DNA of 64,000 bases, taken from the sequence record PP400779; one strand, given 5' to 3'. The translations under genes and the position numbers were made by a program. The stretch comes from Escherichia phage JM17. The notes beneath the pieces are model-generated. The model had not been told where the DNA came from and made no database searches. It was given only the letters and a program-made list of their open reading frames with translations. Below, piece by piece: positions 4,509 to 63,786 of this stretch. The first letter of the stretch is position 1. Every line of letters begins with the position of its first letter.

Positions 4509-4973
4509 ATGAAATCATACGCTGAATTTTTGACTGAACAATCTAGTTCAGATGTAAAAGCCGCTGCGATTGCAGCAATTCAAGCAGGTAAATATTCTTA
4601 CAAAGACGCCTCTGATGAAGAACGTTTCCGTTTTATTAGAGATTTTAAAGCCGAAGGTTTTACTAATGCTAATACTGTTAGCCGAGTTTTTAAAAGCCTA
4701 GCTGCATCAGGTGAATTGTTCCAGAAAGCTACAGGTAAAGCACCTGCGCCAAAAGCGGACCCTAAAGCAGCTCAAGAAAAAAATATCGCCAAAGGAATTA
4801 TTTCTAAGTATGAAGCAATTCTTAAAGAGCTTTTAGTAATCAAAACAGAAGGACAGAAACTGGCACGAGCACATAGCTTCAAAGATAATCCTCACGCTCA
4901 TAGCCTTGAGTATGTTGAAGATATCCAAAAACTTATTAAAGACCGTATCTGGTCTGCTAAACAAATTAAATAA
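4509..4973 (+). CDS. internal protein-like basic protein (leader MKSYAEFLTE)
   Basis: 154 aa, Ala/Lys-rich; CTS-like N-terminus. Confidence 0.5.
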   Translation: MKSYAEFLTEQSSSDVKAAAIAAIQAGKYSYKDASDEERFRFIRDFKAEGFTNANTVSRVFKSLAASGELFQKATGKAPAPKADPKAAQEKNIAKGIISKYEAILKELLVIKTEGQKLARAHSFKDNPHAHSLEYVEDIQKLIKDRIWSAKQIK

Positions 4974-9274: not shown

Positions 9275-9344
9275 TTTCGCAAAACTGTTTACACAATTAT
9301 AGGACTATGTTATAGTAGTCCTATTAAAACATGAGGAGAATATT

Positions 9345-10829: not shown

Positions 10830-11062
10830 GTATAGCAATTTACATTAAATCAGAATCATGTGATAGTTATCTGTACACATACGATAAAGATGTGTCAGAA
10901 GAAAAAATCAAAGACGATCTTAATATGGACCTTGATATGTTCTGTCCTATTGCAGATTACAAACTTGCGGTCTCTAATAGTGAAAGTCCATCTAAAGAAA
11001 CGCGCATTGAAGAATTTATATCTGAACTAATGGCCAAATCATGGGACCGAGATGATGAGTAA
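10826..11062 (+). CDS. hypothetical acidic protein
   Basis: ATGA overlap with upstream ORF. Confidence 0.4.
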   Translation: MSIAIYIKSESCDSYLYTYDKDVSEEKIKDDLNMDLDMFCPIADYKLAVSNSESPSKETRIEEFISELMAKSWDRDDE

Positions 11063-11510
11063 GAAAAATAAAGTGAAAGAACTATCAGCCGGTATTATTT
11101 TCCTTACCGAAGATAAAGAATTATTCATGGGGCGTGTAACTGGTTCTCGTCATAAAGGTGCATTAGCTCATCGGTGGGATATTCCTAAAGGCCGTGTCGA
11201 ACCTGGCGAATCTCCTATTGAAGCCGCTATTCGTGAATGCGAAGAAGAAACTGGGTTTACACAATATGACCCTGCCTTCCTGAAAGACCTAGGTGAACAT
11301 CATTACTCAGACAATAAGAATATTCATCTGTTCCTATATACCATCCCTGTAGAGCACGAGCAATTCAGAAACAGTGTTTGTAATTCCTATCATACATTCC
11401 CAGACGGACGACAGATTCCTGAATTTGATGCATTCGCTTTAATTAAACCTTCTCAATGGGAATATGTAATGGGCAAATCATTATATAAGGTGCTCACTAC
11501 CCTCCTATAA
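11052..11510 (+). CDS. nudE: Nudix hydrolase (T4 NudE-like)
   Basis: Nudix box GRVEPGESPIEAAIRECEEETG; located next to lysozyme gene e. Confidence 0.8.
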   Translation: MMSKKNKVKELSAGIIFLTEDKELFMGRVTGSRHKGALAHRWDIPKGRVEPGESPIEAAIRECEEETGFTQYDPAFLKDLGEHHYSDNKNIHLFLYTIPVEHEQFRNSVCNSYHTFPDGRQIPEFDAFALIKPSQWEYVMGKSLYKVLTTLL

Positions 11511-11512
11511 GT

Positions 11513-11544
11513 AATAAATACCTCCTATAAACGTGGGAGGTATT
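11513..11544 (+). promoter_or_regulatory. RBS-sequestering hairpin with embedded late-promoter-like AATAAATA upstream of gene e
   Basis: stem TACCTCC (11519-11525) / GGAGGTA (11536-11542) contains the SD GGAGG; ATG at 11545. Confidence 0.5.
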
Positions 11545-12033
11545 ATGAATATATTTGAAATGCTTCGTAATGACGAAGGTCTTAGACTGACTTTATACAA
11601 AGACACTGAAGGCTTTTGGACGATTGGCATAGGCCATTTGGTAACAAAGAACCCGTCTTTAGCCATAGCTAAAGCTGAACTTGACAGAATTATCGGACGT
11701 AAATGCAACGGTACAATTACCCTTGATGAGGCTGAAAAGCTATTTAATGAAGACGTTGATAAAGCCGTTCGCGGAATCTTGGGTAATGCTAAACTTAAAC
11801 CGGTATATGATTCTTTAGATGCGGTTCGTCGATGTGCATTGGTCAATATGGTCTTCCAAATGGGTGTAGCAGGCGTCGCCGGTTTTACTAATTCTCTTCG
11901 TATGCTTCAACAGAAACGTTGGGACGAAGCGGCAGTAAATCTAGCCCAATCTAAATGGTATCGTCAGACACCTAATCGCGCGAAACGCGTAATCTCAACA
12001 TTTAAAACAGGAACTTGGAAAGCGTATATATGA
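11545..12033 (+). CDS. e: lysozyme (endolysin, T4 gene e)
   Basis: [32 protein letters not shown]... near-identical to T4 lysozyme as recalled; catalytic E11/D20/T26 context present. Confidence 0.95.
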
Positions 12034-12311
12034 AAACATACAATGAATTTTTATCAGAATCTATTCTTAACGAAGCTACTGACACATTTGCAACTAAGCT
12101 AGGTGCAGCTTTGGTTGAAGCCGAAAGTCTATTAGCACGTATTTCTGAACTTGCTAGTAAGATAGATACTCGCAAATTTGAACGTACCAGCGATATCGCT
12201 AAGCTTGAAGCCTTGTTACGTATGTGCGATAAACCGGAAGAAATCGCTAAGAACGGCTCGCTGATGAAACAACGTCTTGAAAAATATATTTCAGGCGCTT
12301 CAGAAAAATAG
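12030..12311 (+). CDS. internal protein-like (leader [10 protein letters not shown])
   Basis: CTS-like N-terminus; ATGA overlap with the e stop codon. Confidence 0.5.
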
Positions 12312-12313
12312 TT

Positions 12314-12370
12314 GTTTACTTCCTCCAAGGGTTTTGATACTATACATTCATCAACTACTTGGAGGAAATT
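12314..12370 (+). promoter_or_regulatory. PeSL-like promoter: GTTTAC, TACTAT, arms TTCCTCCAAG / CTTGGAGGAA (anti-SD / SD)
   Basis: left arm lies in the promoter spacer; right arm carries the SD before ATG 12371. Confidence 0.5.
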
Positions 12371-12480
12371 ATGACCCGTCCGAAGCGTCCATTGCGATAA
12401 ATCAAGCACGCTTAGATGAAAAAATTGCTCAACGTCCGACTTGGTACAAATACTTTGGTAAATCAATTTACTAAGGAAAA

Positions 12481-12741
12481 ATGAAAATGTATCAAGAATT
12501 TATCGTTGAAGCAGATGCCAAAGGTCCTAAATTTAAAGTTAAAGCTTTCATTGGTGATGCGGAAGACTTTGGCTCATTAAAACGTAATGGGTATTCTTTC
12601 TTAGGTGGCAATGGTAAAGAAATCAACACCTATGCAAAACGTAGTGAAATTGCTTATGTTGTAGCAAGTCCTAAAGTAGATGTTGACGATATTGGATACG
12701 ATTTTAACAACTTCGGAATTATTTCTGGCGGTAAAGCTTAA
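12481..12741 (+). CDS. internal protein-like (leader MKMYQEFIVE)
   Basis: CTS-like N-terminus; AAGGAAAA SD. Confidence 0.5.
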   Translation: MKMYQEFIVEADAKGPKFKVKAFIGDAEDFGSLKRNGYSFLGGNGKEINTYAKRSEIAYVVASPKVDVDDIGYDFNNFGIISGGKA

Positions 12742-12806
12742 ATTGTTTACGCTTAAGTATTAATATGGTATATAATTACTCTATCAAAACAAACAAGGAA
12801 ACAAAA

Positions 12807-13109
12807 ATGAAAACATATCAAGAATTTATTACTGAAGCGCGAGTGAGTGCAGGTAAATTAGAAGCCGCTATAAATAAAAAGGCCCATTCATTTCATGATT
12901 TGTCCGATAAAGACCGTAAGAAACTTGTAAGCCTTTATATTGACAAAGAGCGTATTCTCGCTCTTCCTGGCGCTAATGAAGGTAAACAGGCCAAGCCTTT
13001 GAATGCTGTCGAAAAGAAAATTGATAACTTTGCTTCTAAATTCGGTATGTCTATGGATGACCTTCAGCAAGCGGCTATCGAAGCAGCTAAAGTAATTAAA
13101 GGTAAATAA
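12807..13109 (+). CDS. internal protein-like (leader MKTYQEFITE)
   Basis: CTS-like N-terminus; GTTTAC...TATAAT promoter and AAGGAAAC SD upstream. Confidence 0.55.
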   Translation: MKTYQEFITEARVSAGKLEAAINKKAHSFHDLSDKDRKKLVSLYIDKERILALPGANEGKQAKPLNAVEKKIDNFASKFGMSMDDLQQAAIEAAKVIKGK

Positions 13110-20183: not shown

Positions 20184-21169
20184 TGAAAACAATTATGAAA
20201 GGCTACTTTGGTAGCCACCTTTATGGAACGTCTACTCCTGAATCTGACGTCGATTTTAAAGAAATTTATGTCCCTCATGCTCGTGATATCTTGACCGGTA
20301 ACGTTAAAGAACACATGAGCAAGAACACGAATAACACTGCTTCTAAGAACACAAAAGACGACGTAGACCATGAGTTGTATAGTCTCAAATATTTCTTTAA
20401 ACTAGCTGCAGATGGTGAAACCGTCGCATTAGATATGCTTCACACTCCACCGAGTCTAGTAGTTAAATCTGATTTGCCTGATGTATGGAAGTATATTCAA
20501 GATAACAGGTCTCGTTTCTATACCACTAACATGAAATCTTATTTAGGGTATGTCCGTAAGCAAGCTTCTAAATACAGTGTCAAGGGTTCTCGTCTGGCTG
20601 TTCTCCGCCAAGCCCTTAAACGTTCTAATGAATGGGGACAATACTTTGATAACGGTGCAGTAATTCGTTTATCACATATGAAGAATGTTCTGCCTGTAGG
20701 TGAATTTGCTTCGTGGGTTGAAACCGAAAACGAGAAAACAGGTAAGCAAACATTCTATAATCTGTTAGACCGTAAATTCCAAGATACGTTAACCAATAAA
20801 GAGTTCAATGCCATCCTGGTTAAACTGGAAGAGAACTATGGTGAACGTGCTCGTAAGGCAGAAGCTAACGAAGGTATTGACTGGAAAGCATTGAGTCATG
20901 CATGTCGTGGTGGACTTCAACTACTGGAAATTTACAAAACCAGCGACCTGGTTTACCCACTTCAGGACGCTCCATTTATTCTTGATGTTAAGCTTGGTAA
21001 ACATACGTTTAAAACTGTACAAGAATTCCTAGAAGATATCGTTGACCAAGTTGAACAAGCATCAGAACAAGCCGCTAAGAACGGTATGCAACAAAAAGTA
21101 GATATGAGTTTCTGGGATGACTTCCTTGAACAAGTCTATCTCGAAAATCATAATTCTTACTATAAATAA
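20180..21169 (+). CDS. nucleotidyltransferase-fold protein (Pol-beta-like NTase motif)
   Basis: 329 aa; GSHLYGTSTPESDVDF equals the GS-x(9-13)-DxD NTase signature. Confidence 0.5.
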   Translation: MMKTIMKGYFGSHLYGTSTPESDVDFKEIYVPHARDILTGNVKEHMSKNTNNTASKNTKDDVDHELYSLKYFFKLAADGETVALDMLHTPPSLVVKSDLPDVWKYIQDNRSRFYTTNMKSYLGYVRKQASKYSVKGSRLAVLRQALKRSNEWGQYFDNGAVIRLSHMKNVLPVGEFASWVETENEKTGKQTFYNLLDRKFQDTLTNKEFNAILVKLEENYGERARKAEANEGIDWKALSHACRGGLQLLEIYKTSDLVYPLQDAPFILDVKLGKHTFKTVQEFLEDIVDQVEQASEQAAKNGMQQKVDMSFWDDFLEQVYLENHNSYYK

Positions 21170-27361: not shown

Positions 27362-27400
27362 ATTATAAATACCCTTATCTATTTAAGGTAAGGGTTTATC

Positions 27401-27874
27401 ATGTTATTATCAGGCGCAAAATATAAAGAAGAAAAACAAAAATTTTATGATGCACAGAATGGTAAGTGTCCTATTTGCCACCGTGAATTAGACCCTGATG
27501 TTCAAGGTAACCATCTTGACCACGACCACGAATTAAACGGGCCAAAAGCAGGTAGAGTTCGTGGGTTACTCTGTAATCTGTGCAACGCAGCAGAAGGTCA
27601 AATGAAGCATAAGTTCAACCGTTCCGGTCTTAAAGGACGTGATGTCGACTACCTCGAATGGCTTGAAGCTCTTCTTGTTTATTTGAAACAAGATTATTCT
27701 GATAATAATATCCATCCTAATTTTGTTCCAGACAAAACTAAAGAGTTCTCAAGACTAGGTAAAGAGGAAATGATGGCTGAGATGCTTCAAAGAGGATTTG
27801 AATATAATGAATCTGACACCAAAACACAGTTAATAACTTCATTTAAGAAGCAGCTTAGAAAGAGTTTAAAATGA
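27401..27874 (+). CDS. 49: endonuclease VII (Holliday junction resolvase, gp49)
   Basis: 157 aa; CPICHREL...HLDHDHE...CNLCN zinc/HNH-like motifs. Confidence 0.9.
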   Translation: MLLSGAKYKEEKQKFYDAQNGKCPICHRELDPDVQGNHLDHDHELNGPKAGRVRGLLCNLCNAAEGQMKHKFNRSGLKGRDVDYLEWLEALLVYLKQDYSDNNIHPNFVPDKTKEFSRLGKEEMMAEMLQRGFEYNESDTKTQLITSFKKQLRKSLK

Positions 27875-33918: not shown

Positions 33919-34476
33919 ATGACTGAACAAAAACCTAAAAATAACTATGTGAATAATAAAGAGCTTCTCGCCGCTATAATCGAGTGGAAAAAGGAGCTCT
34001 TAAATAATAAAGACCCAAACAAAATTATTCGTCAGAATGATACCATCGGTTTAGCAATTATGCTTATCGCCGAAGGCCTGTCCAAACGTTTCAACTTTTC
34101 AGGATATACCCAGTCTTGGAAGCAGGAGATGATTGCAGATGGGATTGAAGCCTCTATTAAGGGACTTCATAATTTCGACGAAACTAAGTACAATAACCCA
34201 CATGCATACATAACTCGAGCTTGTTTTAATGCTTTTGTCCAACGTATCAAAAAAGAACGTAAGGAAGTTGCAAAGAAATATAGTTACTTCGTTCATAATG
34301 TCTATGACAGTCATGACGATGATATGGTAGCGTTGGTAGATGAAACGTTTATTCAAGACATCTACGATAAAATGACGCATTATGAAGAATCCGCTTATAA
34401 AGCTCCTGGGGCTGAAAAGAAGGAAGTTGTTAGCGATTCGCCTAGTTTGGATTTTTTATATGAGGATGACAATTGA
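33919..34476 (+). CDS. 55: late-transcription sigma factor gp55
   Basis: 185 aa; ...[49 protein letters not shown]... matches T4 gp55 as recalled. Confidence 0.9.
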
Positions 34477-39854: not shown

Positions 39855-40217
39855 ATGTTTAACGATAGAGATTTTGCTTTAAAATTTAAAGATATAATGA
39901 ATTCTCCTAATGTTAAAGATAAAATAAAAATATCTAAAACATTGTATTGGTCTAAACCTGAAAATAGAGCAAAGGCCTCTATCGCAGCTTCGAAAAGAAA
40001 TGCAACCAAAGAATTTAAGGATAAATTCAGAAAATCTAAAGCTAGAGGTACATGGATATTTCATGAACAAAAATTAAAGGAATTGTGGATTGCTTTAGGA
40101 AAACCAAGTTATATTACATTTAGAAAACATGCAATTCAGCATGGTTTTAATGATGAATCATACCAAGGTGCTATCCGGTCTTGGACAAATTATTATGCTA
40201 ATAGGAAACCTAAATGA
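39855..40217 (+). mobile_element. C-terminal basic (DNA-binding-like) part of the split homing endonuclease
   Basis: Lys/Arg-rich 120 aa immediately downstream; together the two ORFs equal one HEG in size. Confidence 0.4.
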
Positions 40218-40900
40218 AACTTAGCCGTGAAACCGTAAATATTCTGAAAAACTTCGCTTCTATTAACTCTGGCATTCTGCTGAGTCAAGGTAAATTTATT
40301 ATGACTCGTGCAGTTAATGGCACCACTTATGCGGAAGCAAATATCTCTGATGAAATTGATTTTGACGTAGCACTTTATGATTTGAATAGCTTCTTAAGCA
40401 TTTTGAGTCTAGTGTCTGATGATGCTGAAATTTCAATGCACACTGATGGCAATATTAAAATTGCAGATACACGTTCCACAGTTTATTGGCCTGCCGCTGA
40501 CAAGAGCACCATTGTTTTTCCTAATAAGCCAATTCAATTCCCAGTGGCTTCTGTGATTACTGAAATTAAAGCTGAAGACCTTCAACAATTGCTTCGAGTT
40601 TCACGTGGACTTCAGATTGATACAATTGCTATTACAAATAAAGATGGTAAAATTGTTATCAATGGCTATAATAAAGTTGAAGATTCCGGACTAACTCGTC
40701 CTAAGTATTCTTTGACTCTTACTGATTATGACGGTTCTAATAACTTTAACTTCGTAATCAATATGGCTAATATGAAAATCCAGCCAGGTAACTATAAAGT
40801 AATGTTGTGGGGAGCTGGTGATAAAGTTGCAGCTAAGTTTGAAAGCTCTCAAGTAAGTTATGTTATTGCGATGGAAGCCGATTCTACTCACGACTTCTAA
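40214..40900 (+). CDS. 45: sliding clamp gp45
   Basis: 228 aa; matches T4/RB69-type gp45 as recalled. Confidence 0.9.
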   Translation: MKLSRETVNILKNFASINSGILLSQGKFIMTRAVNGTTYAEANISDEIDFDVALYDLNSFLSILSLVSDDAEISMHTDGNIKIADTRSTVYWPAADKSTIVFPNKPIQFPVASVITEIKAEDLQQLLRVSRGLQIDTIAITNKDGKIVINGYNKVEDSGLTRPKYSLTLTDYDGSNNFNFVINMANMKIQPGNYKVMLWGAGDKVAAKFESSQVSYVIAMEADSTHDF

Positions 40901-61343: not shown

Positions 61344-61388
61344 TTAAGTTATAAATACACCTGTAATTAAACAACAAAGGAGTTAATT

Positions 61389-61625
61389 ATGGGTGGTTAT
61401 GTAAACATCAAAACCTTTACGCATCCTGCTGGTGAAGGTAAAGAAGTTAAAGGTATGGAAGTTTCTGTGCCGTTTGAGATTTATTCAAACGAACATCGGA
61501 TTGCAGATTCTCATTACCAAATCTTTCCATCAGAAAAGGCAGCTTATTCTACTGTAGTTTCTGATGCAGCTGACTGGAAAACTAAGAACGCTGCAATGTT
61601 TACCCCTACACCAGTAAGCGGTTAA
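61389..61625 (+). CDS. hypothetical protein
   Basis: 78 aa, followed by a terminator. Confidence 0.4.
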   Translation: MGGYVNIKTFTHPAGEGKEVKGMEVSVPFEIYSNEHRIADSHYQIFPSEKAAYSTVVSDAADWKTKNAAMFTPTPVSG

Positions 61626-62988: not shown

Positions 62989-63204
62989 AAGAGAAATTGA
63001 AAGAGAAATTCTTACTAGAAATCAAGGAAAAAGACTTTGAGACATGGTATCGAATGGTGAAAGGGTTGACATTGCTTTTTAAAACATCCTTATTCATGTT
63101 AGAACAACCTGGTCCTGATGGACCTTTAGTAGGAAAGCTTAAAAAGTAGTTTACATTCCCTCCTCTCGTGTTATGATAGGCTTATCTTTAAATGGAGGTC
63201 TATC

Positions 63205-63786
63205 ATGACATGTCAATCTGAACTTCAAGAACGTGAATACCTAACAAATCTGATTGATAGCAAATTCACCCGCCAAGAACAAAACATTCTCTGGGCTTGC
63301 ACCGATTCTAAGGAAGACCCGGATTTTCACTATGAATTAGACCATCTTGTTCGTAAGCATATGACTTCTACAGTACCAGTAGAACTCTACCGCGGTGTAA
63401 CTCCAGAAGAAGTAGAACGTCTTTCCCTTCTTTCTGTTGGATGCCATTGGTCTCCTGGACGAGTAACATCGTTCACAACTGATTTCAGTACAGCTCGTCA
63501 ATTCTCTGGGAGATGGGAATATCAGACGTACACTATTCTTAGTCTCAGGAATGCTCCATTCATTTTTGATTACTACCAAAACATGATTAACATTGTACTC
63601 GCCGGAAAGAACCCTAAGCATGTTATGGAAGAAACGCGTGTTGACGTCCTAGATATGATTGAATCTGAACAAGAGTACATGGTCTCAAGTATCTCTAGAT
63701 TTGAGATTGTGGAAATTGAAGAGTTAGAGTATGACCCTTTGTCTCGAGTATACAAAATCATTCATTTGAAAATGTTGAATTTTTAG
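63205..63786 (+). CDS. putative ADP-ribosyltransferase (ModA/ModB-like), first of two tandem paralogues
   Basis: 193 aa; R-S-E-type pattern ELYRG ... FSTAR ... EQEYM; N-terminus similar to the next ORF. Confidence 0.35.
   Translation: MTCQSELQEREYLTNLIDSKFTRQEQNILWACTDSKEDPDFHYELDHLVRKHMTSTVPVELYRGVTPEEVERLSLLSVGCHWSPGRVTSFTTDFSTARQFSGRWEYQTYTILSLRNAPFIFDYYQNMINIVLAGKNPKHVMEETRVDVLDMIESEQEYMVSSISRFEIVEIEELEYDPLSRVYKIIHLKMLNF

Follow-up and report, generated by a model that had tools for sequence, protein, structure and literature searches.

The nudE-e junction

We analyzed a window of 64,000 nucleotides from Escherichia phage JM17 (record PP400779), with attention to the junction between nudE and gene e. 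By its sequence identity, the window is that of an RB69-like Mosigvirus. Across nudE and e (11050-12100), we found 99.8% identity to Escherichia phage FL18 and 98.9% to RB69, and some 150 further Mosigvirus genomes matched at 95-99%. The 71-nt leader of gene e (11495-11565) was 100% identical to that of RB69 and many other records, and at least 99% identical in 68 phage records. The features of the junction are as follows.

9288 to 9316, plus strand: candidate early sigma-70-type promoter TTTACA-17-TATAGT with TG before it, from a consensus scan; the nearest predicted source of read-through to nudE and e
11052 to 11510, plus strand: nudE (Nudix hydrolase), from the ORF list, a Pfam NUDIX match (2e-16) and the RB69 and T4 annotation
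11501 to 11510, plus strand: upstream direct-repeat copy CCTCCTATAA, overlapping the nudE stop codon, read from the sequence
11506 to 11513, plus strand: late-promoter-like box TATAAGTA with one mismatch, from a motif scan and folding; probably inactive
11513 to 11520, plus strand: late promoter box AATAAATA, gp55-type, -13 to -6, A(-13) variant; homologue by position of the T4 distal e late promoter
11517 to 11528, plus strand: hairpin 5' arm AAUACCUCCUAU, with the anti-SD CCUCC at 11521-11525 (RNAfold)
11525 to 11532, plus strand: degenerate remnant TATAAACG of the T4 proximal late promoter TATAAATA, spanning stem top and loop, from the T4 alignment
11526 to 11529, plus strand: predicted late transcription start (sixth base after the box, and neighbours), from box placement (PMC1524935)
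11529 to 11532, plus strand: hairpin loop AAAC, from folding
11533 to 11544, plus strand: hairpin 3' arm GUGGGAGGUAUU, comprising the SD GGAGG at 11536-11540 and the spacer to the AUG (RNAfold)
11545 to 12033 including the stop codon, plus strand: gene e, a T4-type endolysin of 162 aa, from the ORF list, tblastn and Pfam

Gene e opens with the ATG at 11545-11547, and the N-terminus of its product, MNIFEMLR, is the same as in T4. By tblastn the protein shared 83% identity with the e lysozyme of T4/T6, and it matched the Pfam family Phage_lysozyme. The nudE gene lies directly 5' of e, in the same order as in T4 and RB69, and nudE transcripts would enter the hairpin. The window thus has both the conserved nudE-e context and the e orthologue that belong to a lock of the T4 gene e type. 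The candidate promoter at 9288-9316 corresponds by coordinate mapping to Pe:67959, an early promoter predicted in RB69, and no terminator was predicted between it and e, either by a consensus scan or in the RB69 TransTerm list.

The annotated start of e differs among records. RB69 record AY303349 (locus L002, 2011-2484) begins the gene at the second in-frame ATG, window position 11560 (MLRNDEG...), and so leaves out five codons relative to the T4-like MNIFEM start at 11545 with its GGAGG SD. ATK47 and other records place the start at 11545, and the AY303349 start is probably mis-annotated.

The set of ORFs 3' of e is unlike that of RB69, in which e is followed by one ORF and then denV. Several short ORFs, at 12030, 12481 and 12807 (region 12030-13109) and at 4509, open with MKTY(N/Q)EF, MKMYQEF or MKSYAEF, N-termini that we take to resemble those of T4 internal head proteins. 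A Pfam search with the ORFs at 12030, 12481 and 12807 gave no match for any of the three; in related genomes, RefSeq names a neighbouring feature 'internal head protein'. Across the window, 85 of the 88 SD-preceded ORF starts and all six exact matches to TATAAATA were on the plus strand, a bias that fits the orientation of the T4 early/middle gene block.

A hairpin over the gene e ribosome-binding site

Folding with RNAfold yielded a stem in which positions 11517-11528 pair with 11533-11544, two G-U pairs included (local sequence ...CTACCCTCCTATAAGTAATAAATACCTCCTATAAACGTGGGAGGTATTATGAAT...). The original prediction had described a stem TACCTCC/GGAGGTA that pairs the SD of e; these segments were placed correctly (11519-11525 with 11536-11542), but the stem is 12 bp long rather than 7. 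The paired stretch reaches the last base before the e AUG and the SD is buried in it, with a probability of being unpaired of at most 0.002 in read-through RNA. The hairpin has a folding energy of -16.3 kcal/mol, with z-scores of -5.9 for 35 nt and -3.2 for 71 nt, and none of 200 shuffled sequences folded as well. It was also the minimum-energy fold in every upstream context that we tried (RNA beginning between 11200 and 11490, with 55-345 nt added 5'). A stable hairpin that sequesters the SD, as in the T4 gene e lock, is thus present.

We also calculated the energy needed to open the ribosome-binding site (positions -12 to +5) at all 88 SD-preceded ORF starts of the window. Opening the e start cost 17.2 kcal/mol, which ranked second of the 88 (median 4.9, sd 3.6), and among the starts that are preceded by a late promoter box, those resembling soc, rI and 49 ranked high as well. 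Both this rank and the shuffling result speak against the view that, in an A+T-rich genome, an inverted repeat and an A+T-rich octamer stand side by side here by chance. A scan of 11300-11750 against Rfam identified no family; there were just three chance-level matches (E at least 3.7), none of them on the hairpin.

The decamer CCTCCTATAA occurs twice, 20 nt apart (11501-11510 and 11521-11530), and its first copy overlaps the final codons and the stop of nudE. This upstream copy could possibly act as a weaker alternative anti-SD, forming 8 bp with 11533-11540; RNAfold favoured the proximal arm in every context folded. Two close relatives, L003 and L004, have CCATCCTATAA as the first copy, and their stem carries A in place of the G at 11535.

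A stem of this kind might instead serve mainly as a rho-independent terminator or attenuator that closes the early nudE unit, in which case early polymerases would rarely reach e. A terminator is annotated at this place in several Mosigvirus genome records, among them ATK47, where ARNold gave a 'putative terminator' over the stretch that corresponds to window 11519-11555; the centre of the stem is G+C-rich and the tail, AUGAAUAUAUUU, has several U. However, no U-run follows the stem directly, leaving the usual pairing of G+C stem and U-run incomplete, the consensus terminator scan made no call at this site, and the RB69 TransTerm list is empty between 59939 and 71365. The stem also matches the stretch from SD to AUG in every lineage, whatever sequence comes after it. 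In T4, moreover, early transcripts do reach e and are present but untranslated, according to the passage on gene e in a review of these phages (PMC3014915). We consider termination an improbable main function of the hairpin.

Protection of the RNA was weighed as well. In read-through RNA the GGAG within the e SD is fully paired, and the hairpin could mainly shield it from the RegB endonuclease or stabilise the mRNA, with no translational lock. What would be gained by shielding an early RNA not destined for translation is, however, not obvious, and according to the review RegB cuts none of the late transcripts that have an intergenic GGAG. The same passage on gene e ascribes the effect in T4 to blocked 30S binding (PMC3014915). 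Shielding would be at most a side effect, compatible with a translational lock, and as the main role of the hairpin it seems very improbable.

The late promoter box and the predicted late RNA

The box AATAAATA occupies 11513-11520 on the plus strand. It had been predicted to lie just upstream of the hairpin, and its identity and position held up, except that its last four bases, AATA (11517-11520), form the outer 5' arm and pair with UAUU (11541-11544). Among 50 listed T4 late promoters, 32 are perfect and A at -13 is the commonest variant, with 9 sites (PMC2988020). In RB69-type and other T4-like genomes the motif spans -13 to -6 and the T at -13 is poorly conserved, A or T being common (PMC1524935).

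Taken by itself, the AATAAATA octamer is not beyond chance. Exact matches to TATAAATA were not enriched in the window (6 versus 8.25 expected), and one-mismatch matches were no commoner than in shuffled sequence (148 versus 172 expected), a count that favours coincidence. The significance of the box comes from its position and conservation, not from such counts. There were 10 boxes of the form [T/A/G]ATAAATA on the plus strand of the window, eight of which lay 20-32 nt 5' of an SD-preceded ATG. The ATGs belong to seven ORFs, one being shared by the boxes at 21161 and 21173. Both of the other plus-strand AATAAATA sites were among these eight boxes. Judging by their N-termini, we take the boxed ORFs besides e to include an internal-protein-like ORF (ATG 4509), an rI-like ORF (18024), a gene 49-like ORF (27401) and soc (61389).

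An HMM-derived list of 31 RB69 late promoters (PMC1524935) has none at gene e, where the box would be expected on the minus strand at about 65713-65720. The omission may be explained by the CCTCC that follows the box, which lacks A+T-richness; an A+T-rich segment just downstream is typical of late promoters (PMC2988020). The proven e promoter of T4 has CCTTC in this place.

If the box represents -13 to -6, transcription is predicted to start at about 11526, 3' of the anti-SD CCUCC (11521-11525). The box is thus placed as in the T4 gene e lock, and from the T4 case we infer late initiation near 11526, the corresponding transcript 5' ends and their effect on translation. Our search of the literature for transcription start-site mapping in T4-type phages found nothing usable. 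The box-like TATAAGTA at 11506-11513 was rejected as a promoter for this purpose; RNA starting at about 11519 keeps 10 of the 12 stem pairs, and opening the ribosome-binding site still costs 15.4 kcal/mol. The late machinery on which a T4-type lock depends is encoded in the window, with a gp55-like late sigma transcription factor at 33919-34473 (PHROG match, 3.7e-68) and a gp45-like processivity factor, the clamp, at 40214-40897 (1e-84). The gene for gp33 probably lies outside the window.

In the proposed mechanism, host-type RNA polymerase would run early from upstream promoters, the nearest candidate being that at 9288-9316, via nudE into e. In this long RNA, AAUACCUCCUAU would pair with GUGGGAGGUAUU, leaving the stretch from SD to AUG double-stranded and the 30S subunit excluded, and no premature lysozyme would be made. 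Late in the program, polymerase with gp55, plus gp33 and the gp45 clamp, would recognise the box at 11513-11520 and start some six bases 3' of it, beyond the anti-SD. The late mRNA would lack the 5' arm, its ribosome site would be far easier to open, and lysozyme would be translated.

We estimated the size of this change by applying one rule to all leaders, with +1 set at the sixth base after the box; for the window, RNAs starting at 11524-11529 were folded. The predicted cost of opening the ribosome-binding site fell from about 17 (16.7) kcal/mol in read-through RNA to about 7 (7.4) kcal/mol in late RNA. For T4, the corresponding values were 15.7 kcal/mol for the long RNA and 4.1 and 2.3 kcal/mol for RNAs from its two late starts. 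In the folded late RNA of the window, the SD (GAGG) pairs with codons 6-8 of e (AUGCUUC), so that release of the site is partial and relative in the model, with 7.4 kcal/mol left.

The arrangement is conserved among related leaders. An IMG/VR scan with the lysozyme returned 80 loci, and we used 23 of these (L003-L025), whose lysozymes are 60-99% identical to that of the window. Together with the window, RB69 and T4 they gave 16 distinct leaders and, judged by identity level, probably span Mosigvirus, Tequatrovirus, Dhakavirus, Klebsiella and Kosakonia phages, and SP18-like phages. The segment ATAAATAC was unchanged in all 16 leaders, the first base of the box being A, T or G, and in every one the SD was covered by a stem that follows the box. 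The drop in opening cost was likewise seen in 16 of 16, from 10-19 to 2.3-8 kcal/mol. With the arrangement kept across these leaders, coincidence is effectively refuted as an explanation of the locus.

The sequence of the stem is lineage-specific. In the L012 group the spacer is UCCU, the box is unpaired with the 3' side, and the stem is CUCCUAUC/GAUAGGAG; in another lineage the stem is CCCCU/GGGGG and the SD itself is GGGGG. The box was kept in the L012 group where its pairing partner has been lost, which points to a constraint other than pairing and argues that the box is constrained as a promoter, with sequestration of the SD kept by other means. A plain MAFFT alignment (A1) misplaced the L012-group 5' arms and was replaced by a structure-neutral, N-padded alignment (A2), in which 84% of cells were paired versus 39-58% in slid registers. 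Covariation on A2 was weak, with only two pairs changed on both sides, each in one sequence, as expected because promoter and SD pin both arms. The second, proximal late promoter of T4 was absent in the other non-T4 lineages examined. By this sequence comparison, the distal box is the conserved element, and the proximal late promoter of T4 is conserved no further than the closest relatives of T4.

More distant lysozyme homologues (50-56% identity; L027-L030, L034-L037 and L040-L041, with the lysozyme at position 601) have an SD that is complementary to an upstream stretch, for example UUCCUU-AAAUAA-AAGGAA, or GCCUCUU...AAGAGG(G)C across an A+T-rich spacer. Endolysin genes outside the T4 group may also have a sequestered ribosome-binding site.

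Weighing these results, we hold with considerable confidence that the element represents, in a Mosigvirus of RB69 type, the orthologue of the translational lock at T4 gene e. Such a lock would keep the endolysin unmade until progeny have been assembled, despite early transcription of e.

Other buried starts and comparison with known locks

Several further starts in the window combine a promoter with a hairpin. At the ORF at 27401 (MLLSGAKYKEEKQKFYDAQNGKC), which is presumably gene 49-like and endonuclease VII-like, TATAAATA is followed directly by a hairpin, ACCCUUAUCU/AGGUAAGGGU, that covers the SD (region 27364-27403; -12.9 kcal/mol, z = -2.6). T4 gene 49 is a known promoter-in-hairpin case, and the start at 27401 has the same logic. 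The soc-like ORF (MGGYVNIKTF, ATG 61389; region 61350-61391) has TATAAATA 31 nt 5' of its start, and a predicted stem, CACCUGUAAUUAA/UUAAUUAUGGGUG (-12.4 kcal/mol), pairs its spacer and AUG; its opening cost ranked fifth of the 88.

The most buried of all 88 starts, at 19.2 kcal/mol, was the ATG at 803 (region 757-811). The ORF that it opens (MELIFLSGIKRS) we take to encode a dNMP kinase like T4 gp1. Here UAGCUCCGUA pairs with UAUGGAGCUA (-21.4 kcal/mol, z = -5.8) and an extended -10-like element, TGTTATAAT, lies inside the hairpin. The folding model suggests that translation at this gene 1-like start is set by the transcript start, with a non-late promoter. The start at 63205 (193 aa, MTCQSELQEREY; region 63150-63215) has a hairpin of -22.5 kcal/mol (z = -5.2) over its SD and AUG. 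An early-type promoter, TTTACA-17-TATGAT, has its -10 (TATGAT) overlapped by the 5' arm of this hairpin; the promoter appears to match Pe:13466, one predicted in RB69, and by coordinate mapping to RB69 the ORF may be modB. Read-through RNA would be locked at this start and promoter-proximal RNA open.

Apart from e, the starts at 803 and 63205 are the two most buried in the window. At both, a hairpin of -21 to -22 kcal/mol covers the SD and AUG, and a sigma-70-type -10 element lies within the hairpin or at its 5' arm. They raise the tentative idea, which we think rather unlikely, that the e lock is one instance of a wider genome design, extending beyond late genes, in which a promoter lies in the 5' arm or loop of the hairpin over a ribosome-binding site and translation is set by the transcript start. 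If both starts act like e, the principle would also shield genes from read-through that originates upstream during early and middle transcription.

The mechanism at gene e is already known. Its description for T4 dates from 1986, and a review of 2010 widened it to relatives of T4; it is a textbook example of a transcript 5' end deciding translation; an intact lock in an RB69-type genome adds nothing new mechanistically. In T4, long early transcripts enter e and the inhibitory structure cuts lysozyme synthesis about 100-fold, as the review's passage on gene e states with reference to McPheeters 1986 (PMC3014915). That passage places two late promoters just 5' of the ribosome-binding site; transcripts from either are missing the structure's 5' part and are translated well. 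In close T4-type relatives the leaders are similar, and in each the region coding for the 5' strand holds a T4-type late promoter (Uzan and Miller 2010, PMC3014915), an arrangement that matches the window and loci L003-L025 exactly. In the legend to Figure 5A of the review, RB69 is not among the phages given as lacking the structure or gene e.

The original prediction, that the window reproduces the T4 translational control of lysozyme, was supported by a base-for-base alignment of the leaders (T4 TATAAATACCTTCTATAAATACTTAGGAGGTATTATG, window AATAAATACCTCCTATAAACGTGGGAGGTATTATG) with a phage in which the mechanism is documented. The T4 leader (NC_000866) reads TTTTATAAATACCTTCTATAAATACTTAGGAGGTATTATG and is collinear with the window in its box, its anti-SD of pyrimidines, its loop, GGAGGTATT and its ATG, and the homology extends position for position. 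Both leaders have the same SD and spacer, GGAGGUAUUAUG, an anti-SD directly after the box, and a box in the same place that overlaps the outer stem. They precede orthologous genes with the same neighbour, nudE, and their predicted opening costs in long RNA are similar (15.7 kcal/mol in T4 and 16.7 in the window).

The two leaders differ in several respects. Position -13 of the box is A in the window and T in T4, and the stem of the window is tighter, with 12 bp and a 4-nt loop compared to 11 bp and an 8-nt loop in the RNAfold minimum-energy structure of T4. The promoter in the T4 loop, TATAAATA, has become the degenerate TATAAACG in the window, which probably leaves one late start there. Late RNA is predicted to keep more structure in the window (7.4 kcal/mol compared to 4.1 and 2.3). 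The copy of CCTCCTATAA at the nudE stop codon is a further feature that sets the window apart from T4. The T4 case has been studied experimentally, whereas that of the window is known from sequence and prediction.

Comparable locks exist at other T4 genes. In the long early and middle transcripts of genes 49, soc and I-TevI the ribosome-binding site is buried, and a late promoter by or in the 5' arm gives translatable RNA (PMC3014915). These share the logic of the e lock, but they belong to different genes and have unrelated stems, and are analogues of the element described here rather than homologues.
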